Counted from the first letter of the stretch, positions 8,600-47,520 are shown. The stretch: 62,810 bases of DNA from an uncultured Candidatus Poseidoniales archaeon (GCA_964401115.1 CAYNXD010000073.1:1-62810); one strand, 5' to 3'. Notes: generated by a model from the sequence alone, not told the origin. A program made the numbers and translations.

Positions 8600-9391
8600 T
8601 CAGGGGGCGCCCAGAGCAGCCAGAGTTGCAATAGTTTGATTTGTAAATTTCCGATAAAGTTGGCGCCTCTTTTCGTGCAATTTTTCTTCAGAAAGTTTGC
8701 TCATTTTCTTTACTTCAGAATCTGTGATGCCTCCCCCATTTTTATCCTCTACCCACTCATTCCAGGTGATTGTTGTGCTGAATCTAAGTTCTGTACGCTT
8801 CCAAAATTTTGGAAGGAATGGCTCACCAGGGGCAAGTATTTCTCTTGATCCTTTTATTCCACAGAAGATTACTGGCACATCGGGAAACGATGCAGCAATT
8901 CTAGCAATTCCAGTTTTTCCTCTTGCTAGGAAGGGAGGTGATTTATTTCTAGAGCGGGTTCCTTCTGGGAAAATACCTAGTGGCATACCGGCTTCAAGAA
9001 CGTCTGCAGCTCTAGCAATCGCATCATCTCCTCCAAAACTTCGATTAGTCTCAACTTGCCCAGTTGCTAGCATCAATTGTCTCCAACCAATTTTCTTGAA
9101 ATGCTCATCTTTTGCAAGGTAGAACAGTTTTCTTCTTGAACTAAATATTGCGAGTGCAGGGTCTAGGTGGGAAAGGTGATTGGCAGCAACAATAACAGGT
9201 CCCTTTTGAGGAATGTTTTCACGTCCAAATATTCTCAATCTAGTAATTATATTGAATAGCGGAATCGCAAAATTTAGCAATCCTGTGTAATATGGGGTCG
9301 AGGGTATAGGCCTCCCAGCAGGTTCGATATGCATTAACTCGGCCAGATTGTCGCGACCTTCATCTGACAAACCCATGAGTGCTCGTAACAA
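8600..9391 (-). CDS. plsC: 1-acyl-sn-glycerol-3-phosphate acyltransferase-like (PlsC family)
   Basis: Acyltransferase motif I NHLSHLD (HX4D) and motif III FPEGTRS. Confidence 0.78.
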   Translation of the reverse strand: MLRALMGLSDEGRDNLAELMHIEPAGRPIPSTPYYTGLLNFAIPLFNIITRLRIFGRENIPQKGPVIVAANHLSHLDPALAIFSSRRKLFYLAKDEHFKKIGWRQLMLATGQVETNRSFGGDDAIARAADVLEAGMPLGIFPEGTRSRNKSPPFLARGKTGIARIAASFPDVPVIFCGIKGSREILAPGEPFLPKFWKRTELRFSTTITWNEWVEDKNGGGITDSEVKKMSKLSEEKLHEKRRQLYRKFTNQTIATLAALGAP

Positions 9392-26900: not shown

Positions 26901-29061
26901 AGATTGGAATGATGATTCCAATTTTGATGGGATGCCTAATGCATCAGAATTCATAGAATATCAAATGATGTCACCATCAAATATCGAACAGGCACGCGAC
27001 AATTATACGTTTTACTTTGATGACACAGATGCTCCTAACGGCGGTATTGTTGCGGGTTATGTCTCAGGTTCAGATGCTGCCGGCAACTCATTGATGGGTG
27101 GCGGTGGCCCAGGTATTGATGAGCAATTATTCACTTATCAACTGGCCCAAGATGGCGCTCCCAACATTATTGGAACTGGTGGCTTTTCGGACGGTCCCCA
27201 CTCATGGTTGCATCCAGCCACCCTCTATGAAATTAATATTCCATTTGATGAACCAAACGGTTTGTCTGATCTAGAGGATGTTAGATTCCAACTCGCTAGC
27301 AACTCAATCGTTGATCCTTTAGAAGTAGTTTGGAATGCCACAACAAATCGTTGTGTATCTTCAACTGAAGATAAACCCTGGATGCAAAACAACCTTTTGG
27401 TAAATTCATGCCACATTCATGCTAGGGATGGCGAGATAACCCCATTCACAACCGAGTTAGAATTGAGAATGGAATTCACATTGGATTGGGGGCTACCTAT
27501 TGAAAATGACCTCAGAAGGGCTCCGGCAATCACAGTTCGTGACCGTGCTGGATTGGAATCATGGCTTGAATTGCCCCAGTTACGCTGGCGTTTCTCCCCT
27601 AACTTGGCAATTTTTGGAGATAGCGTAATTTTGGAAGTAGAAGAAGGTTCCATTATTGATCAAAGCGCTTGGGTGAGGCCAGGGACTGGATTAAACATAT
27701 CTGGACAAGTGAAATTTGTCGAAACAGGACTAAGTCCCACTATACCGTTTGATGTTTCGATCCTTCTTGATGGAGAAAGATCGATAGTTTCAACTATCAA
27801 TGGTTATTTCATTGCTGAGTTGTCTGCACCTATGGATTCTAAGAGTCATGCGCTTTCATTTGAATTGAGTGGTTTGCCCCCTGAGGCAGTAGATGGCACA
27901 GACTCAACAGCAACTCTATATTGGATAGAGGTGGATAGTAATCAGCCAATTCCTGCAGGTGTTGTCGCCCCTAGAGAGGGTACGGAAATTACTCTTAATG
28001 AGCTATCATCAGTTGAAGTCGAATTACTTATTTCAGAACAAGAGAAATTGAATGTTGATAGTCTTCAATTGTTTTACAAAGTTTCAACTGTCAGCCAACC
28101 AAATGGTCCAGCTTTAATAGAAGGTTCAGAGCCGCTAATTGTTTCAGGCTCTCCGGTCGGGCAATCAATTTCAGTATCATCTGTAATTGATATAGAGAGC
28201 CGCCTTCCGAGCGATGCTTATCAAGACGAGTTACTTCTTTCTGTTTGGATTAAAGGTAGTGACATGGCAGGTAACGGCATAAGTTCATCTGCCCAGTTCA
28301 ATAGTGGTTCAACTCCTTTCGTTGTATGGAATATTGAGCATTTGGTTGCTGAAATTGAGATTACAAAATTGACATATTCAAGAAGCGGAGAACTTGATGT
28401 TGGACAGACAACGATGGTGACAATTGAATTGAGGAATATAGGGCATGCGCCGGGTTCTGCGAAATTATTGGCATATGAATTAGGAAGAGGGGGCGAAAAC
28501 CGCTCACTTACTCCTGTTCCAATTTCTGTAGTTGTGCCGATGGGTGAAAGAGTCACTTACGATATAGATTGGGTGCCAGAAAATAATGGCGAGAGGTGGG
28601 TAGTTGTTTCATTAGAAGATGGTTCATCAATGGAAGGGGATCACATCAATATTCGAGGGGACGGAGGTGATGATCCTCTTGGAAACGCCCTACAAGATGT
28701 TCCAATAACATGGCTGTTGGTAATTGCTGTTTTACTTCTAATTCTGACTCTTGTAGTTTCTCTTGCACTGAGGAGCGGCGGTTCTTCTGAGTCAGTATTG
28801 GATGATACTGACGATTGGGATGATGATGAGTGGGAGGAAGAAACGAAGTCTACCTATGCTAGCCCATCAGATGCAATGGCTAATTTGGCACCTTCTGAGC
28901 AACCACCCAATTTGGGTTATCAATATCAAAACCAACAGTTAGATCAAGCTCAGAACTACCAGCAAAACAACCAAAATCAATGGACTGAAGAACAAATCCA
29001 AGCATACCACCAACAGAATCAACAACAATATTATGACGCTGAAAAACATCAAAATCAGTAG
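23926..29061 (+). CDS. Giant (~1710 aa) surface protein: signal peptide, beta-rich ectodomains incl. CARDB-like module, C-terminal TM, acidic then Q/N-rich cytoplasmic tail
   Basis: N-terminal hydrophobic segment (VFLPIILAFLLAGPSL) and TM ITWLLVIAVLLLILTLVVSLAL near the C-terminus. The tail ends QYQNQQLDQAQNYQQNNQNQ...QQNQQQYY. Confidence 0.8.
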   Translation: MERSLSRVFLPIILAFLLAGPSLICFLQPPTELHEFGSVKETQLNVETTISITGSPNGSSDSLQLEVPEDEAVTGVDLSLEPHIHPVSDGISWSSASDWNMSGVINDGVDFNISSGMTLLPQGYDWDFESNSFGNGWTHSGNSNWIVQSGTRLSGQYSAQSGYISHNQQTSISVTISNMVGSGSFKYRTSTEGYYDRLLFCVDNTGCTRYGGYQAQWSGTTSGTYNFNVNSGSHTYTWKYYKDGSVNSGSDRVWIDDVEFNPTSGGSGDANWTSAQFGPGATGSLKTPVGQYGLMSIDASTSGGSSVTWDVLDGITKQPIYGFNDRSDLYADLGAIDWHDHPTIRLRLYMDQPSGASIIVHSVNLQGRYAQTFTRDPGWGGSINWDGDSYYGSGSILSPVFECLRPISRVKSTASYSSSGQLLVSADGGPFNSVSTSGGTHTFDSYANEIQFKWEGTSSNSDLRSVILDLDSGGLPVDPRIDVGLDGLIEWEISDSKIGPWGWQDRLSTGSLSSDHIFTTTSSKQVGIWLPTSGLDAMRFSVNPSSSGIQNLDISLNVDGTDVFSQSFGTFSNSRIVTLDTTSLSNLNNELSSSSSIIWPNSQKQVGDSYVQAVFTLDADYGSVNIGGISAVYHPIVNLSYQEFDEMVWSINDLMPSTNALGGIKKVPLTIQMTSSGSIKATIKDLTSTDELSSDSMSITNATITLAPSHQWIEVNTTHTAPLGTVSAIQLDMIGSLHQVRVLCRQDGSLSPLTSLGGQGMNEMEMLLWDVANGCNLEVNGTSVTSSLRFQLNSSWDDEDNLAMRVRLVLTDGRRSIPLVQEFGPGSILAVENDVEIISWEMYNDLGIPIPEDRLYLKSNTPITISVDLGFPNVDSFLAPRAGDVAVRVFENDQVVANSTALVNGSIDINLLAPLSSQPIEYRIDIFTLHGQENISQIALNRTYEIDSLAPIVIDQNIRKYDHLEHSLTQEIRVEIYDRPLLPDHLSLMLWRDWNDDSNFDGMPNASEFIEYQMMSPSNIEQARDNYTFYFDDTDAPNGGIVAGYVSGSDAAGNSLMGGGGPGIDEQLFTYQLAQDGAPNIIGTGGFSDGPHSWLHPATLYEINIPFDEPNGLSDLEDVRFQLASNSIVDPLEVVWNATTNRCVSSTEDKPWMQNNLLVNSCHIHARDGEITPFTTELELRMEFTLDWGLPIENDLRRAPAITVRDRAGLESWLELPQLRWRFSPNLAIFGDSVILEVEEGSIIDQSAWVRPGTGLNISGQVKFVETGLSPTIPFDVSILLDGERSIVSTINGYFIAELSAPMDSKSHALSFELSGLPPEAVDGTDSTATLYWIEVDSNQPIPAGVVAPREGTEITLNELSSVEVELLISEQEKLNVDSLQLFYKVSTVSQPNGPALIEGSEPLIVSGSPVGQSISVSSVIDIESRLPSDAYQDELLLSVWIKGSDMAGNGISSSAQFNSGSTPFVVWNIEHLVAEIEITKLTYSRSGELDVGQTTMVTIELRNIGHAPGSAKLLAYELGRGGENRSLTPVPISVVVPMGERVTYDIDWVPENNGERWVVVSLEDGSSMEGDHINIRGDGGDDPLGNALQDVPITWLLVIAVLLLILTLVVSLALRSGGSSESVLDDTDDWDDDEWEEETKSTYASPSDAMANLAPSEQPPNLGYQYQNQQLDQAQNYQQNNQNQWTEEQIQAYHQQNQQQYYDAEKHQNQ

Positions 29062-29141
29062 TTTTATTCTACAATATTTCTCACTATTGGGTATTTTTCG
29101 AATCCGTTCCTTTCATAGCATAGGGGCTTTCACGCATGATT

Positions 29142-29446
29142 GCGAGGGAGTAGGAGGGCTGCTGACAGTGTTCGACACTGAGGAAAGTCCCCTCTCCACC
29201 ATGCAGGCGCCCCGATTAACTTCGGGAGCCCGGGAGGGCTGGCTCTGCTTCAGAAACGAACCAGTGAGGTCGAGAACTATGATTCCGAAGGGAGGAGATT
29301 GTCACCACTGGCTGAGACGAGTAACCGCGCCGGAGCAAGTCCAAACAGTTCCGCCGAATAGCATGGGTGAGGAACGGGTAGGATGCTAAGTTGAATGCAG
29401 CCAACCGAAAGGCCAACAGAAAGGGGCTTACTCCCTACTCCCTTGC
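29142..29446 (+). ncRNA. rnpB: RNase P RNA (archaeal type A)
   Basis: CR-I GAGGAAAGTCC at 29180-29190 and CR-V ACAGAAAGGGGCTTA at 29416-29430. P1 pairing of 29142-29156 with 29431-29446. GC-rich island in AT-rich DNA, ~305 nt. Confidence 0.85.
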
Positions 29447-29448
29447 AC

Positions 29449-32136
29449 CTAATCAAACAATTCATCTACAGATGGTATTGTGCTAGGATCAGAAAAATCA
29501 TCTTGTGGAATTTCAGAATTTTGGATTAGTTCTCTTTCAACTTCCAGAGTTGATATTGATGATGGGTTTTCATCCCAGATAAGTTTAGGATTTCTAGTTC
29601 TGTTCATTCTAATTATTGAACCAATCGTTAGTCCAATTCCAATGAAAAACAGAACCGCTAGTAGGAACTCAACGGTCGAAGATAACTGCCATTGATTTGA
29701 TTCTATAGTTTCAATATTTTGTTCGATAATTTCATCATCCTTTTCACTTGTCAAATCACTATTATTTTCTTCAATTAAAGGTGGTTCAGGCCAAAATAGA
29801 TTCACTTTCTTCTCCATCCAAGACACATCATGTTCTATTCTCAATAACAATTCTAACTCACCTATAGAAGGCAATACTTCTATTTCATATTCCCCTGAGC
29901 TTTGGTTGTAAAATGTTTGATTACCTATAATGGTTGTAAATTTACAATCATTTTCGCAACTAGAATTAATCAATAATATAGCCGTATCATTATGATTCAT
30001 AGGCCAATGTAATACATCTACTGAAAGCGACATAGTGGGACATCCACGAATAGATCCACTGGTGTAAATACATTCATCCAAGGCATCATTTCGGCCATCT
30101 CCATCACTATCTCTCTGTGTTGGTGAGCAACCCAATTCGTCGGCTATTTCATCTAAAGGTGTGAAATCGCAAATGTCAATAGCATCTGAAACGCCATCAG
30201 AATCTGAATCAATCTGAGTCAAAGCACAACCATATTTGTCAACATCTAATCCATTAGGGGTGTCTGGGCAATTATCTAAATTGTCAGTTACTCCATCTAC
30301 ATCACTATCTAGTTGGCTGAGCGAGCATCCATCATTATTTACTAACTCTCCCGGAGTTGTATTTGGACACTGATCAACATCGTTCATGACACCATCCCAG
30401 TCATCATCGATTTGGTTTTGAGCACAGCCAATAAGATTGATTTCAACCCCAATTTCTGTATCAGGGCAAATATCAATGTCATCAGTAACACCATCGCCAT
30501 CCGTATCTTTCTGATATTCTGCACACCCTAAACTATCAACTTCTATGTTTGCTAAGGTATTAGGGCAAATATCAATGTCATCTGTAACTCCATCTTCATC
30601 AGTATCTTTCTGGTAGTCAGCGCATCCCGAATCATCGACAATAGATCCAGCATTAGTTCCAGGGCATTGGTCTAGAAGGTCATTCACCCCGTCATTATCA
30701 GTGTCTAAATCTGCTAATCGGCATCCAAAATGATTAACCAAATCTCCAACGGGGGTTTTAGGACAATTGTCAGCATGATTTCCAATCCCATCGCCATCAA
30801 TATCAGATTGACCAATTTGTTCTAATACATACATTCCAAGTAACTGATGTGTTGTTCCAGTGGGGTGAATTTTGTCAAAGAAAATGAATTCATCAACTGT
30901 TGGTTCAATATAGTCGTTTGAGTCACAAGAAAAGCCATCATGGTGACATGCAGCATGTGTGACGTTAGAAATCCCATAGAAGGAACCATTCCAATATATG
31001 GTCTCAAACATTTGAAAGACATCTATTACCTGTATGCTAATATTTAGGGCACTCTCTCTTGAAATCATTGCACTTTCTAGTTTTGAGTTGTAATCTTTCA
31101 ACCTATCGTGGAAAGCTTGTTTATTATTTTGGCTTTCACCGGAATATGAGGGGGTCTTCTCAAGGGGGGGCATATTGATGACCACGATGTCTTTTGCACC
31201 ATTTGAAAATACATCATTAACATGGTTAACAACGTAATCCACTACCTTTTGTGTATCAGTTTCACCACTATTTAGGAAGTTATTACCCCCTCCCCAAATC
31301 ATGACCTTTTCGTTTGGTGAAATCCAATAATTGTTGGTATAGTCCTCTATTTGTTTGCCCAAATTTGGGATAACGAAAAAGTTCATTCCTTCGCCTGCTT
31401 CAGCACCACCAAATGCCCTATTTGATCCAGTTCCACTACCTGCTCCTGGAGATATGTTAATTCCCATGCCTGCTGCGACATGTTCGTTCCACATTGGCCC
31501 TGTTGAAAATCTACCATTGTAGTATGGTGGCGATTCTGGAGTGCCATAAGCGGACTTTGAGTTACCCATATCGCTTAAAGAATCGCCAAATATCAATAAT
31601 TTTGATATGTTTGATTGTATGGTGGATTCAAAAATTATGAATTCCTTTTCTGCGTAATCAAGCAATTGATTTCTATTTTGATCCCACAGAACAAATCTTA
31701 GTGTGTATTCATAGCTCGTATTTATCCAAAATTCATATGCAGGAAATGAGAATGAAATAGTGCCATTAGTAGAATTAAATCCTTGGCCTGAACCGTTGAA
31801 TGTCAAAGTTCCATTATTTGCATATCCTGCATGAATAGTGTAGTCAAAACTGTAAAAGTTGCTAATACTACTATCGACTCCTGACCAAGTCAAATTCCAA
31901 TTAATCATCTCGCCAGTCTGAAAAGCAAACAAATTTGGCAGTGAATTATAATTATCCATATGAATTTCAATATTTTCATTGCCAGTTACCGATTTGCTAT
32001 TTCCTGCAGATGTAGTGATTGTTGAAATAGGTAGAATTACAATCATCATAATCATAATCATGGCTGATTTGCGGCTATTTGTAGGCATAACCCCACCATT
32101 CACATTCACCGAAGGTGAGATGTTATCATTTAACAT
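29449..32136 (-). CDS. Membrane-anchored extracellular SGNH/GDSL hydrolase with eight thrombospondin type-3-like Ca-binding repeats
   Basis: Signal anchor, then GDSL block LLIFGDSLSDMGNS, GGGNNF, and FFDKIHPT (DxxH). Then 8x D.D.DG..D..D.CP repeats, a beta-rich domain and a C-terminal TM. Confidence 0.8.
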   Translation of the reverse strand: MLNDNISPSVNVNGGVMPTNSRKSAMIMIMMIVILPISTITTSAGNSKSVTGNENIEIHMDNYNSLPNLFAFQTGEMINWNLTWSGVDSSISNFYSFDYTIHAGYANNGTLTFNGSGQGFNSTNGTISFSFPAYEFWINTSYEYTLRFVLWDQNRNQLLDYAEKEFIIFESTIQSNISKLLIFGDSLSDMGNSKSAYGTPESPPYYNGRFSTGPMWNEHVAAGMGINISPGAGSGTGSNRAFGGAEAGEGMNFFVIPNLGKQIEDYTNNYWISPNEKVMIWGGGNNFLNSGETDTQKVVDYVVNHVNDVFSNGAKDIVVINMPPLEKTPSYSGESQNNKQAFHDRLKDYNSKLESAMISRESALNISIQVIDVFQMFETIYWNGSFYGISNVTHAACHHDGFSCDSNDYIEPTVDEFIFFDKIHPTGTTHQLLGMYVLEQIGQSDIDGDGIGNHADNCPKTPVGDLVNHFGCRLADLDTDNDGVNDLLDQCPGTNAGSIVDDSGCADYQKDTDEDGVTDDIDICPNTLANIEVDSLGCAEYQKDTDGDGVTDDIDICPDTEIGVEINLIGCAQNQIDDDWDGVMNDVDQCPNTTPGELVNNDGCSLSQLDSDVDGVTDNLDNCPDTPNGLDVDKYGCALTQIDSDSDGVSDAIDICDFTPLDEIADELGCSPTQRDSDGDGRNDALDECIYTSGSIRGCPTMSLSVDVLHWPMNHNDTAILLINSSCENDCKFTTIIGNQTFYNQSSGEYEIEVLPSIGELELLLRIEHDVSWMEKKVNLFWPEPPLIEENNSDLTSEKDDEIIEQNIETIESNQWQLSSTVEFLLAVLFFIGIGLTIGSIIRMNRTRNPKLIWDENPSSISTLEVERELIQNSEIPQDDFSDPSTIPSVDELFD
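30037..30807 (-). repeat. In-frame tandem coding repeats (~96-99 nt period) encoding TSP type-3-like units
   Basis: Eight DxDxDGxxDxxDxCP units. The two central units (about 30462-30530 and 30561-30628) are near-identical at the DNA level. Confidence 0.8.
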
Positions 32137-32150
32137 ATCGATACTTTGAA

Positions 32151-35100
32151 TTATGATAATTCAGCATCCATTGCTTCTGAAATAATATGGGCATTATCTT
32201 CGTAATCTTGCCAATTTCCTTCACCCTTAATCCATGACTCTATTGTTCTATACGCAACTAATAATGATGGTAAAAGTATGGCACTCGTCAATAAAGCCAA
32301 GAAAATCAATAGCATCATCAAGATGAAGAAATTTCTCAGACCAGGTATTGCCAATGTTAATCCGGCAGCCAATCCCGCGCAGGTAGTCGCAGTGGTCTCA
32401 AAAATAGTTTGGCCAGTTCTAGCTACCGCTTTTACTATACCGCCGGGGGTCTCTTTTTCTTCTCTGATTCTGTCCATTACATGAATTGAATCGTCTACTC
32501 CTATTCCAAAAACAATTGTACTAATCATGGCGGTAAAGACATTAACATTAACATCACCACTTTTCATCAATAGCGGTTGCCATAGTACAACAACAGCGAC
32601 AGAAGTCATTGTGAAGAAGGCAAGTCTCGGGCTTCTGAATAACAATGTCATAGCAAATAGGAGAACAATCATCGTTGCAATTGTTGCATCAGATTGTGCA
32701 TTGTGTATGCCTTTGTTTATATCCAATGAAACTGGAAGTCCCCCAGTCAGTAAAGAATTCTTAACGCTATCAACTCCTAAAGCATTGCAATTAAGGGCAT
32801 CATCACATCCTCCTTCTGATAGGTATGTGTCTAATTGGTTTCTTAATTCACCGGCAAGTGCTAGATTTAGGTAAGGTTGATTGACATATACAAGTGTCTT
32901 TGTTTCTCCAAGATTTGCCATTGGTTCGTTCATTAACATTGAACGAATTTCGTAAGACAACGTATCAAATGCGATATTTATCATCACTTCCCTAGTTGTA
33001 ACTGAGGTGATTACAAAATCACCTGTTATGATACACTCTGGTTGAAATTGGTCTTCCCAACAAGGTGAATGCAATATTTCCCAAAGAGATCTGTCATACA
33101 TCTCTTGACCTGAAAGGTTAACATTGATATGAATGGCTTTTAGAATAGTTACCAAACTGATAGAACTAGTATTTTCAACATTGTTAATCTTCTCTTCTGT
33201 AATATATTCTATCGAATCTAACACTTCAATATGCCTAATAGGTGCAATATCATCTCTTACACCCCTATCTTCTGCGTCAATGATGAACATATTCGTTTGA
33301 CCACCTTCAAAAACTGTAGAATATTCTGCTAGAGTCTCATAAGATTCTAAATCAGGAGGTACTTCATTAGAGCCAGCTGTGATGTCTGCCCCTAATTCTT
33401 CTTCAAGGAACACAAAACCAATTGCACTTACGACCACAGCGAAAACAATTACTATCGCAGAACCCTTTACTGGCACTTCCCCAATTATTTTCCAAGCCTT
33501 CTCAGCTTTCTTTCCGCCAGTCTTTCTATAGCGAACTAGCCACCCCAATGCGGGCACCATTATTATGCTGAAAAAGAAGGTACAACTAATTCCCAGAACT
33601 AGCGTAATACCAACGGTCCTCATTGGTTGGATTGGTACAAGCCATGCCCAAGCCAGTACACTGAATCCAACAATTGTGGTAATTGCTGAGAGCAATATTG
33701 CATGTCCAGTGGTCATAATCGAATGGACCGTTGCATCAAGATAGAGTTGTTTATCCCATGGATCTAGCTCGGGAATTGGGTCGCCGTCCCTTTTTGATTG
33801 CCAAACAAGATTTGCATTCTCTTCAAGCATATTTTCTCGAGTTTCTTCTATTCTGTTAATTAGGTGTAATGCATAGTCAACTCCAAGCCCGATTAGAATT
33901 GGTCCAGCAGCAATAATCATCGGTGTCAGCATTATATCTAGAATTACAGTTGTGCCAAAGGTGGTCGCTAAACTCAGAACAATAGGTGTGCCGCAAATTA
34001 TCAGCACTTTCGGATTTCTGTGAAGAGCAATCATAGCAATACAAACAAAAGCAAGACTAATTGGTAACATATCTTCTAGTGCTAAATAAATTGCATCTGA
34101 AACATCATGCAATACTGGAGTAAGCCCTGTGACTGTAATGGCTTGTCTTGTTGGCAATTCCTCCCAACGTTCTTCATTCATACTAGAGAGTTTAATTCCC
34201 TCATAATCTCTGCCACAAAGCGGATTATCAAATTGATTGTAAATATCTGGATTTCTAGCACAGTCATCGATTACTTCCTTAAGATGTAGGATGAATGATT
34301 TATGATCTAGAATTTCTTCCCCATTAGGATCAAATCTTGTATCAACATCGGTTCCAGTCATATCAAATCTGATACCCATTACAACAACTGAAGTATCCCA
34401 TATTCCGTCACCATTAGTGTCAATAACTAGGCTGTCCAATGAACTACCAAGATTCTCAACAGTGTTGTTAATTCTGTCTTGGTTGTCGGGAATAACATAG
34501 GTGTCTCTTGGGTCTTGATTTGCTATATTACAGTCATCTCCAGTTTGAATGGGTAGGCCATATTTTTCAACTGAACAAGCAAAACGATTTGGTGCTGAGT
34601 TTGCTTCCTTAATCATTTGAGGGGCACTTAAAATCCAAACCACACCATCTTGAGTTCCTCGGTCATCTTTATTCCAATCTATTCCCCTTGCATAACGCCC
34701 CATATCTTTGTTATCATCATCACCTTCTAGGAAACTAATCTGCCTAAGAATATCAACATCTGTAATATTTTCACTACCTCTGCGTGCAGGGTCATCGATT
34801 GAATTGTCAGTATGAATGTATAGCAATACGATGTCAGTAGACCATTGTTCTCTCACGTCCAGTAATAATTCGGTAGAATCGGCTCCATCTGGGAGATAAA
34901 TCTCCACATCTCCGTTAATTTGTTGCCCAAAAGCCATGGCGTCTTTACCAACAAGAAAAGTGAGAAGAATCATTACCAATACTATTGGCCCCGGGGAGCG
35001 AAAAATTGTACGATAGAAACGAGTAGCTTGCCCTTTTACGAAAGAATGTGACCAACTACTTATCTCAGAAAACTTACTGCTTACTGAGAATGATATATCT

Positions 35101-35222
35101 TCGTATGTAGAGTAAAGTTGATTGTTCTTTATAATTTGTAAAATGTTTAAAATTGATTTACGAAAATCTGTACTTTCCGAATCCCGGACTTCATCGTTCG
35201 ACAACCCCGACTCATCCGCCAT
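32151..35222 (-). CDS. RND-superfamily exporter, COG1033/MMPL type (two 6-TM bundles, two large external loops)
   Basis: Duplicated GLGVDYALH / GIGVDDSIH motifs at the start of TM bundles, and 12 predicted TMs; 1023 aa. Confidence 0.8.
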   Translation of the reverse strand: MADESGLSNDEVRDSESTDFRKSILNILQIIKNNQLYSTYEDISFSVSSKFSEISSWSHSFVKGQATRFYRTIFRSPGPIVLVMILLTFLVGKDAMAFGQQINGDVEIYLPDGADSTELLLDVREQWSTDIVLLYIHTDNSIDDPARRGSENITDVDILRQISFLEGDDDNKDMGRYARGIDWNKDDRGTQDGVVWILSAPQMIKEANSAPNRFACSVEKYGLPIQTGDDCNIANQDPRDTYVIPDNQDRINNTVENLGSSLDSLVIDTNGDGIWDTSVVVMGIRFDMTGTDVDTRFDPNGEEILDHKSFILHLKEVIDDCARNPDIYNQFDNPLCGRDYEGIKLSSMNEERWEELPTRQAITVTGLTPVLHDVSDAIYLALEDMLPISLAFVCIAMIALHRNPKVLIICGTPIVLSLATTFGTTVILDIMLTPMIIAAGPILIGLGVDYALHLINRIEETRENMLEENANLVWQSKRDGDPIPELDPWDKQLYLDATVHSIMTTGHAILLSAITTIVGFSVLAWAWLVPIQPMRTVGITLVLGISCTFFFSIIMVPALGWLVRYRKTGGKKAEKAWKIIGEVPVKGSAIVIVFAVVVSAIGFVFLEEELGADITAGSNEVPPDLESYETLAEYSTVFEGGQTNMFIIDAEDRGVRDDIAPIRHIEVLDSIEYITEEKINNVENTSSISLVTILKAIHINVNLSGQEMYDRSLWEILHSPCWEDQFQPECIITGDFVITSVTTREVMINIAFDTLSYEIRSMLMNEPMANLGETKTLVYVNQPYLNLALAGELRNQLDTYLSEGGCDDALNCNALGVDSVKNSLLTGGLPVSLDINKGIHNAQSDATIATMIVLLFAMTLLFRSPRLAFFTMTSVAVVVLWQPLLMKSGDVNVNVFTAMISTIVFGIGVDDSIHVMDRIREEKETPGGIVKAVARTGQTIFETTATTCAGLAAGLTLAIPGLRNFFILMMLLIFLALLTSAILLPSLLVAYRTIESWIKGEGNWQDYEDNAHIISEAMDAELS

Positions 35223-35295
35223 ATTGTTGCCTGATGGCTTGACTATGATGAATAGTTCGCCCTAAATGGGTGTGAGAATGGCGAAGAAGAGAATC

Positions 35296-36246
35296 TCACT
35301 CAATTCCAAAATTTCTAACTATGAGCCTTTTCATGATTGTTCTAGTACCCTGTAAAACAAACCCTGTAAAAATTAGGCTAATGCCAAGCATAGATAACCA
35401 AGCAGCAGTTAATCCCGGGCCCACTGTTAAGTCGAGATTAAGTGATGTCCCTGTAAAATCATTGAATCTGTTCAAAGCCCTCATTCCAATAGCCGAGCCT
35501 ATGGTCAAAAGTCCAGCCCCTGGTAATCCAAAAGCCAAGATAGGTTTCTTCTGAGAAAGAGAAATCAAAGCATAAGAAAGTACAGTAAATCCGTGACTCA
35601 TTGCAGTAAATCTAGATCCTTTGGGTACATCATAACGAATGACTGTTGGCACTTCTTTAACAGATAATTCCATTTCTTTACATTGCTCTAACATCTCAAG
35701 TGTGGATTCCATGCCATCCTGATCAAATCTTATTTTCTTTAATGCTCTATTAGAAAATGCCCTAAATCCACTTTGAGTATCTCTGACGGAAAGATCAGTA
35801 GTAAGATTTGATGTTGCAGTGATTAACTTAACTCCAAGTTTTCTGTATGCTGGCATTTCTTCACCTGAACCGCCTTCAACAAATCTGGATCCTATTACGA
35901 AGTCAGCCTGTTCTGAAAAAATTGGTTCTAGAAGGGATGGTATGTCATCTGGTTCATGTTGCCCATCACTGTCGAGAATTACGAGTGCCTCTGCATTGGA
36001 TTCTAATGCGTATTTGAAAATAGATTTTAGTGCCGCACCGTACCCTCTATTTGATCTGTGATAATGTACTTTAGCACCCAATTTAGCAGCAATTCTGGCC
36101 GAAGAATCATACGATCCATCATCAACACAAAACACTTGATCAACATGATTTAGGGACTTCAGCACAACGGTTCCGATAGTCTCCTCTTCGTTGTATAGGG
36201 GCATCGCCGCAATAATTGGGCCAGAGGAGGTATCCCCTTCCATCAT
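35296..36246 (-). CDS. Family 2 glycosyltransferase (dolichyl-phosphate sugar synthase-like) with C-terminal TMs
   Basis: IAAMPLYNEEETI ... VFCVDDGSYDSS ... ILDSDGQH (GT2/DPM1-like). Confidence 0.85.
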   Translation of the reverse strand: MMEGDTSSGPIIAAMPLYNEEETIGTVVLKSLNHVDQVFCVDDGSYDSSARIAAKLGAKVHYHRSNRGYGAALKSIFKYALESNAEALVILDSDGQHEPDDIPSLLEPIFSEQADFVIGSRFVEGGSGEEMPAYRKLGVKLITATSNLTTDLSVRDTQSGFRAFSNRALKKIRFDQDGMESTLEMLEQCKEMELSVKEVPTVIRYDVPKGSRFTAMSHGFTVLSYALISLSQKKPILAFGLPGAGLLTIGSAIGMRALNRFNDFTGTSLNLDLTVGPGLTAAWLSMLGISLIFTGFVLQGTRTIMKRLIVRNFGIE

Positions 36247-36359: not shown

Positions 36360-36830
36360 TCAAAATGCGGAAATTGAGTTATCTGAGGCCATCCTGCGTC
36401 GCTGAAATTCCTCTACAAGCTCTTTCCTTAAGTCAGCCTCTCTTTCGCTCAATCTTCTATTTACGATTTGGGAGATATATGGGTCTAACTTCTCAAGCAT
36501 TTTTGCGACATCTAGTGCGTCATCACAATGAGGACAACATAAATCTTGATTGGTGTGAATTTCATTACTTTTTGATGATTCATATGTGTATAGTGATTGC
36601 ATATTTGAGTGATCTTTCTTATTCTTACGAACCTTTCTTTTGACACTCTTTTTTACTATGGTTTTTGAATCGGCTCTAGCCCTTAAACTTCCCAATCCTA
36701 ATCTTGGTTCGACACCTTCGCTCTTCATTCTTCTCTTTTTCTGAACTGGCTTTTCCTCAATGTCAAAATTTACACCTGAACACACGAATTGACGCATATC
36801 ATCTCCATCTGGTTTTGCATCAAATGCCAT
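36360..36830 (-). CDS. Hypothetical basic protein with CCPHC motif
   Basis: ATG ORF of 156 aa with a Lys/Arg-rich centre. No family recognised. Confidence 0.4.
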   Translation of the reverse strand: MAFDAKPDGDDMRQFVCSGVNFDIEEKPVQKKRRMKSEGVEPRLGLGSLRARADSKTIVKKSVKRKVRKNKKDHSNMQSLYTYESSKSNEIHTNQDLCCPHCDDALDVAKMLEKLDPYISQIVNRRLSEREADLRKELVEEFQRRRMASDNSISAF

Positions 36831-36942: not shown

Positions 36943-37060
36943 AATTTAAAAACTGAATTTATTGTGAATTAATTGGCATTTATATCAGAATAAGTTATCA
37001 TTCAGGTTTTTACTTGTGCGCGCAATTGTCAAAGAGGGTTGCTTAGTCGGGCCCTTCAAC

Positions 37061-38008
37061 ATGCAATGCTTAGTGACTGGTGGTGCAGGCTTTGTTGGCT
37101 CCCATTTAGTAGATTTGTTACTCGATGCAGGTCATAGAGTCAGTATATATGATAATTTTTCATCTGGTAGGAGAGAATTTCTAAATCATCATGGTGATGA
37201 AGTATCTATTATTGAAGGCGATTTACTTGATTTAAATTCAGTTATCAAAGCTATGGAGGGGGTTGATATTGTCTATCACCTAGCAGCAAATCCTGACATT
37301 AGATTGGGTACTACTGTAACCGATACCGACCTAAAACAGGGCACCGTAGCAACTTACAATGTTCTAGAGGCTATGAGAATTAATGGAGTAAAGAAAATTG
37401 CTTTTTCCTCTTCATCTGTAGTTTATGGAGAAGCAGAAGTTATGCCAACACCTGAAGATTATGGTCCGCTATTCCCCATCTCATTGTATGGTGCTAGTAA
37501 GTTAGGATCAGAGGCACTCATAACTTCATGGGTTGGTACATTTGATTTACAGGCTTGGATTTTTAGATTTGCAAATATTGTAGGTGCTCGTGGAACTCAT
37601 GGTGTAATTTTTGATTTCATTCACAAACTTAGGGCCAATCCTAATCGATTAGAGGTTCTAGGAAATGGTCTTCAGGAGAAATCTTACATGGAAGTCAGGG
37701 ATTGTGCGGCTGCAATTATTCATCTAGTATCTAGTGCAGATGAGGCAATTAATTGCTATAATCTTGGTAGCGATGACACATGTAGTGTAAGGAGAATAGC
37801 AGAAATTGTTGTAGAAGAATCAGGATTGACGAATGTATCTATTGAGTATACTGGCGGTGATCGTGGTTGGGCGGGGGATGTCCCAAAGGCTATGCTAGAC
37901 CCAACAAGGATGAATGATGCTGGTTTTTCCACAAGATACAATTCTGAGGGTGCGGTCAGACACACTGCTCAGACTCTGATGGAGGAGATTGGAATTGATG
38001 ATGAATGA
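37061..38008 (+). CDS. NAD-dependent nucleotide-sugar epimerase/dehydratase (GalE-like SDR)
   Basis: VTGGAGFVGSHL, YGASK and extended SDR length. ATG 37061 lies inside the track ORF. Confidence 0.88.
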   Translation: MQCLVTGGAGFVGSHLVDLLLDAGHRVSIYDNFSSGRREFLNHHGDEVSIIEGDLLDLNSVIKAMEGVDIVYHLAANPDIRLGTTVTDTDLKQGTVATYNVLEAMRINGVKKIAFSSSSVVYGEAEVMPTPEDYGPLFPISLYGASKLGSEALITSWVGTFDLQAWIFRFANIVGARGTHGVIFDFIHKLRANPNRLEVLGNGLQEKSYMEVRDCAAAIIHLVSSADEAINCYNLGSDDTCSVRRIAEIVVEESGLTNVSIEYTGGDRGWAGDVPKAMLDPTRMNDAGFSTRYNSEGAVRHTAQTLMEEIGIDDE

Positions 38009-44907: not shown

Positions 44908-47520
44908 ATGGCTGGGCAGGGCATGAGTCAGGACGGTTTGAAAGACCGGACCCAGCAACTGACTACTGTATTTGAGAAAGGCTCTCCAGCGATTTTATTT
45001 GGTGCATTGGTGGTTACTCTATTTTTTGGCATGTTCCTATTTCCCTTCCCCTCCTTCCACACCGATCTGCAAGCATTTGCTCCCGACGGGCCAAATGATG
45101 ATGCAGAGGAAAGGATTGAATCAGCATTTGGAAAACAAAGGCAGCCACTTTTCATACATGTAGTAGATGATGATGGAGGAAATGTTCTCTCAATAGAGTC
45201 TCTACAACAGCAACAGCAAGATTTGGATTCAATTATAGAATGGTCTGACCAAAATGGCCACTTAATTTCAGAGTACATTGCGATTCCTGAAATCATTCAA
45301 AGGGGACTGGACGAGACATCTCCAGGGGCACAATTGAGTGAAGCAACCTCGTGGGCACAATTGCTGAATGATACAATTGATGAGGGTGAAACTTGTGTGG
45401 ATGGGGCTAGTGACGATGAATTGTTAATGCTAGCTAGTTTTGGAAGGGAGGCATTAGTAAACAAAGATTTACAATTTGAGCATACCACATGTGCCTGGCT
45501 CGATGAAAACCGCTCATCTGGTGATCCAACTCCTTCAGCATCAAGCAATCTTTGGATATTCTATATCCGTGCAGATTTAGATGATGTTAGTAGGCAAGAG
45601 ATGGTCAACCTACTACGTATTCAATTTGATGAAGTAGGTTCCCAAGGACCCCTAAAATATGGGTTGATTTCTGATGATGTACTTAGTTATGACATCAACG
45701 AAGGGACAACCCAAAATCTAGTTTGGTTAATTGCAGGTGCTCTCGCTGTTGTAGTGGTTATTCTAGCAATTGCATTCCGTTCGATTAGAGGGGTTGTTTT
45801 CCCTCTTGCAGCTTTGTCTATGGCGCTAGTTTGGACATACGGTTCATTAGCAGCATTAACTCCCACATTTTCTGTACTCCATGTCGCTGTCGCTCCCGTG
45901 GTTCTAGGATTAGGTATCGATTATTCTATTCACCTCCAGAGAGCCTACGAAAGGAAAAAATCACAGGGCGCCGAAACACCCAAGGCTTGGGCTTTTGCAA
46001 TAAACGATCTATACATTGCACTTACTCTTACAGTTATTACAACAGTTGCAGCATTCCTTTCTAATGTTGTATCTCCTTTGCCACCAGTTCGTGCCTTTGG
46101 AATGGCTTTAGCATTCGGCGTGATTTCAGCATTTATTACTTCAACAATTGTTGTAGGTGCCATGCATGTAATGATGGAGAGGGGTGGCCAAAAATTCAGA
46201 CCTGAAAGCCACTGGGAAGGCCTACAGAAGATTGCAAGAGAAGTGGTGATCACTCAAAGAAAAATTCAGGCATTTGCACTAATTTTGGTTGTAATGTTAA
46301 CTGTCGGTAGTGTGGTTCTGGCTGCTGCTAAATTAGAGACGGAATTCGATTTAACAGATTTCTTGGATGATGAAATGGATGTGATGGAGGTGCGTACAGA
46401 CATATATCAATCGTACGAAGCAACAGGGTGGCGCCCAATTTATGTTCTATCAGAGCCACTTGAAGGAGAGCATTCAATAGTTGATGATTCAGATTTTATT
46501 GAAGCAGATAACCATTTGAACAACAGGCTCGAACTTTCCCCAAGAGTGGTGATCCCCAGGGCAGTTGGTGATGGGGAACCAATGATTGAATCAGTACATA
46601 CGGTCCTAAGGGATGCAATAAAGGGTGACTCGGAATTTGGAATTAGAAATGGTATGAGGGTGGTTGGTAACGATATTGTTGTTGAAAATTACTCTACTGG
46701 TGATGCTGTGAAGGCATTACTAGAATTAAGCGAAAATGACTCGGTTGGTGATATTTTATCTGGCGCAACTTGGGCTCAAAGAGTAAATGGGGTGGCCTTT
46801 TTCTCATTTAGTCCCGAAAATGGTTGTGAATCAGGTTGCTTACAGTACTCTCGGATAGAAGTAATGGTTCAAGTTTCATCAAATAGTGAGTCAATAGAGG
46901 CAGTTGAAGGCCTACAGACTGCAGTAATACAATCTTCTGGAAAATATGGTATTCAAGCAGAAATGTATGTTTCAGGAGATGCAGTACAACTTAACCTCGT
47001 CCTGACAGGATTAACTACTTCCCAACTAGAATCTACTGCCATTAGTTTAGTAGTTTCTACTCTAGTTTTAGTTGCATTGACTAGGAGAATAGGGCCAGCA
47101 ATAATTGTCATCACACCCGTTGCGATTGCATCAATTTGGGTTGTTGGGGCGATGGCAATGCTGAATTTAAATTGGAATGTTCTAACTGTAATGGTAACTG
47201 CTCTAACAATTGGGCTTGGAATAGATTATTCTATTCACGTTTGGAGAAAATTTGATTCTTTGAAGCACAAATTTGAACCTTGGGAGGCAATAAAAGAGAT
47301 GCATGCTAGCACAGGTACAGCCCTTGTATTATCTGCAAGCACAACGATATGTGGGTTCCTTGTGCTGAGAATTTCACCTATGCCTGTAGTACAGGACTTT
47401 GGAATTGTAACATCTCTAACAGTATTCTTCTCATTGGCACTCGCACTAGGTTTGATGCCCATCCTTCTCACTGCAGATAGTATGATGGACAATGGTAGTG
47501 GTTTGTTTAATGATGAATAG
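44908..47520 (+). CDS. RND-superfamily exporter, COG1033/MMPL type (second copy)
   Basis: Duplicated GLGIDYSIH motifs, two 6-TM bundles and large external loops; 870 aa. Confidence 0.8.
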   Translation: MAGQGMSQDGLKDRTQQLTTVFEKGSPAILFGALVVTLFFGMFLFPFPSFHTDLQAFAPDGPNDDAEERIESAFGKQRQPLFIHVVDDDGGNVLSIESLQQQQQDLDSIIEWSDQNGHLISEYIAIPEIIQRGLDETSPGAQLSEATSWAQLLNDTIDEGETCVDGASDDELLMLASFGREALVNKDLQFEHTTCAWLDENRSSGDPTPSASSNLWIFYIRADLDDVSRQEMVNLLRIQFDEVGSQGPLKYGLISDDVLSYDINEGTTQNLVWLIAGALAVVVVILAIAFRSIRGVVFPLAALSMALVWTYGSLAALTPTFSVLHVAVAPVVLGLGIDYSIHLQRAYERKKSQGAETPKAWAFAINDLYIALTLTVITTVAAFLSNVVSPLPPVRAFGMALAFGVISAFITSTIVVGAMHVMMERGGQKFRPESHWEGLQKIAREVVITQRKIQAFALILVVMLTVGSVVLAAAKLETEFDLTDFLDDEMDVMEVRTDIYQSYEATGWRPIYVLSEPLEGEHSIVDDSDFIEADNHLNNRLELSPRVVIPRAVGDGEPMIESVHTVLRDAIKGDSEFGIRNGMRVVGNDIVVENYSTGDAVKALLELSENDSVGDILSGATWAQRVNGVAFFSFSPENGCESGCLQYSRIEVMVQVSSNSESIEAVEGLQTAVIQSSGKYGIQAEMYVSGDAVQLNLVLTGLTTSQLESTAISLVVSTLVLVALTRRIGPAIIVITPVAIASIWVVGAMAMLNLNWNVLTVMVTALTIGLGIDYSIHVWRKFDSLKHKFEPWEAIKEMHASTGTALVLSASTTICGFLVLRISPMPVVQDFGIVTSLTVFFSLALALGLMPILLTADSMMDNGSGLFNDE

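Follow-up and report, generated by a model that had tools for sequence, protein, structure and literature searches.

Three genes that lie head to tail on the minus strand of a contig from an uncultured Candidatus Poseidoniales archaeon (GCA_964401115.1 CAYNXD010000073.1:1-62810; this stretch of 62,810 nucleotides is called the window below) raise the question of whether they form one working unit at the cell envelope. Among uncultured heterotrophs of the surface ocean, Marine Group II (MGII) archaea are some of the most abundant, and they are thought to live on phytoplankton proteins and lipids. The metagenome-assembled genome (MAG) that holds the window belongs to Candidatus Poseidoniales, family Thalassarchaeaceae (Marine Group IIb, MGIIb), and is 1.68 Mb long and ~72% complete. 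In the direction of transcription, the three open reading frames (ORFs) encode a family 2 glycosyltransferase (GT2; 35296–36246, 316 aa), a transporter of the RND class (32151–35222, 1023 aa) and a surface-anchored SGNH/GDSL hydrolase (29449–32136, 895 aa). As first called, the ORFs are spaced by 73 nt (GT2–RND) and 14 nt (hydrolase–RND). A first-pass annotation of the window had placed and spaced these ORFs correctly, and had rightly identified them as a GT2, a 12-helix MMPL exporter and an anchored SGNH hydrolase. It had also proposed that they act in series as a coherent export-and-remodelling module. Our analysis did not support such a module, which failed on both gene order and promoter-like elements. 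We concluded instead, with a probability of roughly 0.6, that these are three separately functioning and largely separately transcribed envelope genes, standing head to tail in a long syntenic block.

Inheritance and order of the three genes

Genes of the window were mapped by tblastn onto 40 orthologous loci. Conservation of gene order alone was rejected as proof of function, because the entire neighbourhood of ~25 kb was found to be syntenic across the order: an aa-kinase gene, RpiA, a 1717-aa surface protein, RNase P RNA, RND, GT2, an epimerase and, farther on, FtsJ. Within this block the three-gene order that the module presupposes was not generally conserved. The complete GT2–RND–hydrolase triplet was present in only 5 of the 13 sampled Thalassarchaeaceae genera; adjacency of GT2 and RND was wider, but lies inside the order-wide block.

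Genes of an operon or module should be inherited together across lineages, and these three were not. An RND orthologue was found in all 61 sampled Poseidoniales genomes and a GT2 in 50 of the same 61, while hydrolase homologues occurred in 130 of 301 genomes (~43%), representing 18 of the order's 26 genera. Outside the order, both a sister family and further Thermoplasmatota have RND homologues of 28–35% identity, which adjoin genes for RLI/ABCE1, riboflavin synthase, Macro, enolase, Cdc48, QueH and NMD3; at the loci examined, they never stood beside a GT2 or SGNH gene. Because the RND gene is universal in Poseidoniales and has housekeeping neighbours elsewhere, never GT2 or SGNH, it is by sequence comparison a core, stand-alone gene. 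The GT2 gene adjoins RND in most lineages, with spacers of 33–154 nt. However, no GT2 orthologue was detected genome-wide in Thalassarchaeaceae genera g4, g6, g7, g9, g11, g12 and g13, all of which keep RND, and in the Poseidoniaceae genus g16 it lies ~11 kb from RND, with ArgRS, NOG1, PRTase, LysRS and Zn-ribbon genes between. GT2 is thus dispensable for RND.

The hydrolase gene behaved differently again. No more than five Thalassarchaeaceae genera carry it in the slot flanked by RND and RNase P RNA; in families f2 and f3 (f3 being Poseidoniaceae) and in Thalassarchaeaceae genera g6 and g10 it is located elsewhere, beside RNR, PepX, MFS, FTCD and FdhD genes. The RND-adjacent copies proved non-monophyletic in a maximum-likelihood tree, with four or more switches in the adjacency label, and copies from the f3 genus g20 nested inside Thalassarchaeaceae clades. 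In one genus, two hydrolase alleles at the same slot were only 49% identical in the SGNH domain, with neighbouring RND genes 70–75% identical. These observations on alleles and nesting, which drew on loci L073/L074 (genomes G003 and G009) against the window and on L085/L086 (G145 and G091), suggest diversifying selection, lateral exchange or both. Taken together, the non-monophyly of adjacent copies, the 49% alleles and the nesting of g20 therefore indicate, as far as sequence comparison goes, that the hydrolase gene moves and is exchanged among lineages. Its presence in 18 genera, at other loci and in adjacent copies of more than one clade likewise marks it as autonomous and mobile.

The seven genera without GT2 are small-genome Thalassarchaeaceae (1.3–1.5 Mb; L059–L062, L079–L082) in which the 1717-aa gene and the hydrolase have been lost from the locus and RND has been kept. 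Most of these genera have no hydrolase homologue anywhere, and some g6 genomes hold one elsewhere.

Elements in the two spacers

An operon would also be expected to lack internal promoters, and the first-pass annotation had named independent promoters between the genes as grounds for refuting its module. We found promoter-like boxes at −37 of both downstream genes. The first, CGAACTATTCATC (35247–35259, minus strand), lies in the GT2–RND spacer and begins exactly 37 nt before the RND ATG at 35222. It scored at the 99.68th percentile with a position weight matrix (PWM) trained on other contigs, the contig of the window being left out. The pattern CGAACnnTT[C/G]AT describes the box in GT2–RND spacers, and a box was present at −36 to −38 of the RND start in 16 of 36 orthologous loci.

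The second box, CGATATGTTAAAT (32128–32140, minus strand), lies 10 nt after the RND stop codon and 37 nt before a GTG at 32103, and it overlaps the ATG at 32136 that had been called as the hydrolase start. Its consensus, CGRCAnnTTnAAy, was found in 12 of 16 RND-adjacent loci and also ahead of one non-adjacent copy, L086; therefore, the box at least can travel with the hydrolase gene. Of 13 adjacent loci, 11 have, 36–38 nt past the box, an ATG or GTG in frame that opens a signal-peptide-like sequence. The hydrolase thus probably starts at GTG 32103 rather than at ATG 32136, giving a gene at 29449–32103 and a protein of 884 aa. It follows that the real spacer would be ~47 nt long and would contain the conserved box as well as a palindrome.

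This palindrome, CTCACC-TTC-GGTGAA (32105–32119, minus strand), is a candidate operator or 5' hairpin. All seven spacers in the alignment kept the GC-rich form CTCRCC-N3-GGYGAG, and one pair showed compensation (A-U to G-C); the location of the palindrome between box and start codon makes it a possible operator. Together, box and palindrome suggest individual regulation of the hydrolase, an accessory gene. Elsewhere in the genome the 15-nt palindrome CTCACCTTCGGTGAA recurs identically at C89:2450–2464, 1 nt ahead of the start codon (ATG) for a secreted-looking protein of 319 aa (C89:1495–2454, minus strand). It is possible that the palindrome is a shared operator of a small surface-protein regulon; a search with it as regulon marker returned this one further strict copy in a similar context, too few to define a regulon.

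The two boxes resemble a motif that recurs through the genome. In genome G000, CGAnnnnTT[C/G]AA(g) was sharply concentrated at −40 to −36 relative to the first start codon (ATG or GTG) of long ORFs. Searching with a mismatch-tolerant pattern returned 15 matches in this interval where 4.2 were expected, and controls were flat. With a refined PWM there were 59 matches against ~9 per 5-nt bin, a partly circular figure since its sites had been picked at −40 to −34; for this reason, a seed-only PWM was also used (31 against 12), and the matrix was retrained without the contig of the window. Other searches were less informative. No clear promoter consensus came out of an enrichment analysis of six-mers between divergent genes; the strict box pattern had no match in the window, whose own copy carries one mismatch; and across the genome the strict expression was too rare to judge. 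The signal emerged only in the mismatch-tolerant and PWM scans anchored on start codons. A G-rich, Shine-Dalgarno-like signal was also present genome-wide at −12 to −6. We regard the −37 motif as a likely promoter of the type formed by a B recognition element and TATA box (BRE/TATA), serving leaderless mRNAs in the MGIIb lineage. By the same token, we infer that the RND and hydrolase genes each have their own BRE/TATA-like promoter and would be transcribed as leaderless mRNAs. In MAGs of this kind, the motif is of practical use for fixing start codons and delimiting transcription units.

Several observations weigh against separate function and transcription. The PWM scores of both boxes (99.7th percentile) are equalled by many chance matches inside coding DNA; because score alone fails to separate the boxes from chance, the case for promoters rests on position and conservation. 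No oligo-T tract was visible in either spacer, and with all genes on one strand and spacers short, read-through co-transcription may occur. Several Poseidoniaceae with GT2–RND spacers of 33 nt have no box at −37, which would fit an operon in those genomes, and three families of the order still have GT2 next to RND, the spacer being as short as that in Poseidoniaceae. Lastly, adjacency of RND and hydrolase is kept across several deeply diverged hydrolase clades, which could reflect selection rather than ancestry.

Predicted roles of the proteins and rival readings

All three families are known, and the genes already bear generic names in public annotation. The RND protein matched Pfam MMPL (PF03176) with 71.4 bits against a gathering score of 20.5. 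More specific models scored below their cut-offs: HAE3 (TIGR00921, 1.8e-45) with 155.2 against 351.9 and HpnN (TIGR03480) with 49.4 against 751.85, as did TIGR00833, so that membership in HAE3 or HpnN is not indicated. An AlphaFold2 (AF2) model with a predicted local distance difference test score (pLDDT) of 79 and a predicted template modelling score of 0.74 had 12 transmembrane (TM) helices and two large external domains. The helices, at residues 77–95, 367–562, 588–610 and 828–999, follow the MMPL arrangement of 1+5 and 1+5. No chain was matched in a phmmer search of the protein against PDB sequences, and its relatives came from a Foldseek fold search, in which MmpL5, MmpL4, MmpL3, NPC1, Patched and HpnN matched best (E 1e-18 to 1e-15; TM-score ~0.72–0.76, normalised to the target; sequence identity 12–14%). 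The motifs GVD449Y450xxH in TM4 and GVD910D911xxH in TM10 were invariant in 29 orthologues, and D449-Y450 and D910-D911 fit the proton relay of an active, proton-driven transporter, by analogy with MmpL3. Mycobacterial MmpL3/4/5, Burkholderia HpnN and NPC1/Patched share the 12 helices, the two external domains and the acidic residues of TM4 and TM10, whereas the archaeal protein has a larger first external loop and a cytoplasmic helical extension at residues 19–75. Unlike MmpL and HpnN genes, it had no MmpS-type or hopanoid-pathway neighbour at its locus. We propose that it would act as a housekeeping exporter of the MmpL/HpnN/Patched structural class, using proton-motive force to move a lipid or amphiphile out of the cytoplasmic membrane. 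Its universal presence in the order makes its substrate worth finding, also with regard to the membrane-lipid chemistry of Poseidoniales.

The RND protein is ~100 residues longer (1105–1160 aa) in several small-genome Thalassarchaeaceae. At G019:C4:3145–5013, the match to its residues 1–612 contains seven in-frame stops, a possible pseudogene or MAG error.

The GT2 protein is of the polyprenyl- or dolichyl-phosphate sugar synthase type (DPM1/AglJ/GtrB/ArnC-like). It matched Pfam Glycos_transf_2 (PF00535) with 84.2 bits against a gathering score of 23.3, and its PDB sequence matches were Pyrococcus furiosus dolichyl-phosphate mannose synthase (PfDPMS, 5mlz; 8.4e-16, PfDPMS residues 27–219) and ArnC. 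In NCBIfam, AglJ (TIGR04182; 1.3e-34, 119.9 bits against a cut-off of 325) and PpgS (4.8e-33, 114.5 bits against 370) both fell below equivalog level, as did further matches pointing toward dolichyl-phosphate hexose transferases. A DxD-type motif, DSDGQH, occupies residues 92–97, and two C-terminal hydrophobic stretches, ILAFGLPGAGLLTIGSAIG and LTAAWLSMLGISLIFTGFVL, were judged by eye to span residues ~236–258 and ~278–300. The protein shares with PfDPMS, Haloferax AglJ and bacterial GtrB/ArnC a GT-A GT2 domain with a DxD-type motif, but scores under the AglJ and PpgS equivalog cut-offs; its two C-terminal stretches would make two membrane helices and not four. It is probably a dolichyl-phosphate hexose or N-acetylhexosamine synthase, which would charge a lipid carrier at the cytoplasmic side of the membrane so that surface proteins can be glycosylated.

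Ahead of its catalytic domain, the hydrolase has an N-terminal beta-sandwich (residues ~55–170; 31627–31974; AF2 pLDDT 80–93) that co-aligns with the N-domain of Vibrio thermolabile hemolysin (TLH)/PlpA. The SGNH domain follows (residues 180–441; 30814–31599), matched by Pfam Lipase_GDSL (PF00657) with 68.6 bits against a gathering score of 23.6 over residues 181–436. Next come eight thrombospondin type-3 (TSP3) Ca-binding repeats (residues 445–690; 30067–30804), as had been noted from the sequence at first reading; they match Pfam TSP_3 above the gathering score (86.3 bits, 1e-24) and consist of DxDxDG...C units with a 33-residue period, whose D and C columns were invariant among 40 database homologues. 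These repeats probably form a stalk. A membrane-proximal beta-sandwich (residues 700–782; 29791–30039; pLDDT 87–92) and a C-terminal TM anchor (residues 820–844; 29605–29679) with an acidic cytoplasmic tail complete the protein. The AF2 model (pLDDT 77.5) placed these parts in the order signal/anchor helix, beta-sandwich, SGNH, eight TSP3 repeats, beta-sandwich, TM helix and short tail; in its SGNH part, pLDDT was mostly 79–97 over residues 250–441, with low-confidence loops at 187–204 and 233–241.

Catalytic blocks I, II, III and V are all present in the SGNH domain: GDSLSD with Ser186, Gly244, GGGNN with Asn285, and Asp421-x-x-His424. As the first reading had anticipated, they align with those of known enzymes, residue for residue with Legionella PlaA, and they were invariant in 28 orthologues and paralogues from related genomes as well as in the 40 database homologues. 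The latter were all MGII proteins of ~900 aa, named 'phospholipase/lecithinase/hemolysin' by JGI and 'SGNH/GDSL hydrolase family protein' by NCBI. The best NCBIfam match, to PlaA (NF045906; 3.8e-34), reached 118.2 bits against a cut-off of 450, so that by its sequence the hydrolase is related to PlaA and not an orthologue. Weaker matches were to the acyltransferase PlaC and to the type III effector PRK15381, which we take to be SseJ. PDB sequence matches were PlaA and TLH.

In the fold search, the SGNH alpha/beta/alpha fold was matched with probability 1.00 to PlaA, ChoE and TLH (TM-score at most 0.79, normalised to the target). Vibrio TLH/PlpA structures came out on top, several of them with bound fatty acids and with ~400 aligned columns that include the N-terminal sandwich, followed by PlaA and ChoE; acetyl-xylan esterases ranked lower. 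By sequence and predicted fold, the hydrolase, whose activity is predicted, stands closest to enzymes that cleave lipids and acyl esters, not to those that act on O-acetyl groups of glycans, and on the ranking of the fold matches we rejected a glycan-esterase role for the SGNH domain. The lipid theme of the first-pass annotation is thus reasonable for the RND protein and the hydrolase, but the glycan trimming or acylation it had envisaged found no specific support. The hydrolase shares with TLH/PlpA (8h09–8h0d, 6jkz–6jl2) and Legionella PlaA (8a24–8a26) the SGNH fold, the Ser-Asp-His triad and the GDSLSD/GG/GxNN/D/DxxH blocks, and with TLH/PlpA also the N-terminal beta-sandwich. These are its best sequence and fold matches, yet identity is only 18–23%; and whereas they are soluble, secreted bacterial enzymes, the archaeal protein is extended by eight TSP3 repeats and a further beta-sandwich and is anchored by a C-terminal TM helix. 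Such a combination of TLH-like module, TSP3 stalk and TM anchor seems undescribed in archaea in the literature that we searched, where we also found no paper tying MGII to GDSL enzymes or phospholipases.

We propose that the hydrolase is a type-I membrane protein. Its probable substrates are exogenous ester lipids derived from algae, bacteria or particles, on which it would have phospholipase or lysophospholipase activity, and beta-oxidation would take up the fatty acids set free. This reading fits earlier observations that all MGII genera encode fatty-acid degradation and that thrombospondin-repeat genes are widespread in the group (PMC6461757). A cell-anchored, TLH/PlaA-like phospholipase on a Ca-binding stalk in ~40% of Poseidoniales genomes would be a candidate first step of exogenous lipid use. 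We also observed that the N-terminal beta-sandwich (31627–31974) is dense in N-x-S/T sequons (NLT, NGT, NGS, NST, NTS, NIS). The protein is probably heavily N-glycosylated, which would be an indirect and generic link to the adjoining dolichyl-phosphate sugar synthase. At locus L068 (G010:C145, 11126–13707), hydrolase matches fell in two overlapping frames, possibly because of a frameshift or an assembly error; this copy, too, may be a pseudogene.

Four other readings were weighed against three separate genes. In the first, lipids would be harvested by RND protein and lipase working as a pair: the lipase would free fatty acids or lysolipids at the cell surface, and the RND protein would clear them from the outer leaflet or channel the products. 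Five Thalassarchaeaceae genera have the two genes side by side, as do three or more diverged clades of the hydrolase; the RND family takes its name from efflux of hydrophobes and amphiphiles, and HAE3 genes adjoin amphiphile-response genes in another archaeon (bioRxiv 10.1101/2025.10.20.683597). However, the lipase has no RND neighbour in f2, f3 (Poseidoniaceae), g6 or g10, the RND gene is universal against only ~43% of genomes for the lipase, and the lipase gene has a box and palindrome of its own, with the box also at the non-adjacent L086. We consider this pairing doubtful, although it survives best among the alternatives.

A slightly more doubtful reading is that GT2 and RND are a true pair in Poseidoniales, with an MmpL-like exporter or flippase for a dolichyl-phosphate sugar or glycolipid, to which the Thalassarchaeaceae lipase adds a lipid-harvesting or remodelling step. 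If true, this would give an archaeal RND protein its first assigned role in lipid export.

The full module, with a lipid-linked sugar or glycolipid as product of the GT2, the RND protein as its exporter and trimming or acylation outside by the surface SGNH enzyme, is unlikely. It draws on the single strand and short spacers, on GT2–RND adjacency in most of the three families (spacers 33–154 nt) and on the fold match of the RND protein to the lipid and glycolipid exporters MmpL3 and HpnN; to our knowledge no flippase or exporter for archaeal dolichyl-phosphate sugars has been identified, which we also counted in its favour. Against these points stand the genome-wide loss of GT2 from seven genera that retain RND and its distance of ~11 kb from RND in g16, the lack of any GT2 adjoining RND homologues outside the order, the location of the hydrolase elsewhere in most lineages, the promoter-like boxes in both spacers, and the grouping of the SGNH domain with phospholipases rather than glycan esterases or acyltransferases. 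The trio superficially resembles bacterial Gtr-type or mycobacterial MmpL clusters, with genes for synthesis of a lipid-linked sugar, for membrane transport and for an external enzyme on one strand. Genes of those clusters co-occur and are co-inherited, whereas the three here differ in phylogenetic distribution and have separate promoter-like elements. The module should not be carried forward without transcript data.

Least probable of all is that the hydrolase remodels the cell's own envelope, by deacylating or transacylating native ester-containing lipids or as a GCAT-type acyltransferase: MGII have PlsC and glycerol-3-phosphate dehydrogenase, with a PlsC-type acyltransferase inside the window, they are without glycerol-1-phosphate dehydrogenase and may make mixed membranes (PMC6461757), and the hydrolase has its weaker NCBIfam matches to PlaC, but in the AF2 model the long TSP3 stalk carries the catalytic domain at its outer tip, facing away from the membrane, and fewer than half of the genomes have the gene, which makes a core envelope function unlikely.

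Neighbouring genes

The GT2 has a more plausible pathway neighbour on its other side. A GalE-like NAD-dependent sugar epimerase/dehydratase (37016–38008, plus strand; Pfam Epimerase 7.8e-45; NCBIfam GalE 4.7e-39, below cut-off) is transcribed in the opposite direction to GT2, beyond a small ORF of 156 aa. The epimerase gene was found on the GT2 side of RND in nearly all Poseidoniales loci examined, and it immediately adjoined GT2 wherever GT2 was present at the locus. It may supply the nucleotide sugar to the GT2 protein. The 156-aa ORF (36360–36830, minus strand) lies between GT2 and the divergent epimerase promoter region; it has no family match, contains a CxxC...CxxC-like segment, and was kept only in the two closest genomes, at 60–66% identity.

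On the other flank, archaeal RNase P RNA (29146–29442, plus strand; Rfam RF00373, 229 bits) stands between the convergent genes for the 1717-aa surface protein and the hydrolase, and ends 6 nt before the hydrolase stop codon. An ORF at 29033–29389 was rejected as an artefact that overlaps this RNA; its tblastn matches in relatives arise because RNase P RNA is conserved. Farther off, the PlsC-type acyltransferase at 8600–9391 (PF01553) and the second MMPL paralogue at 44908–47520, both reported in the first reading of the window, proved to be real.

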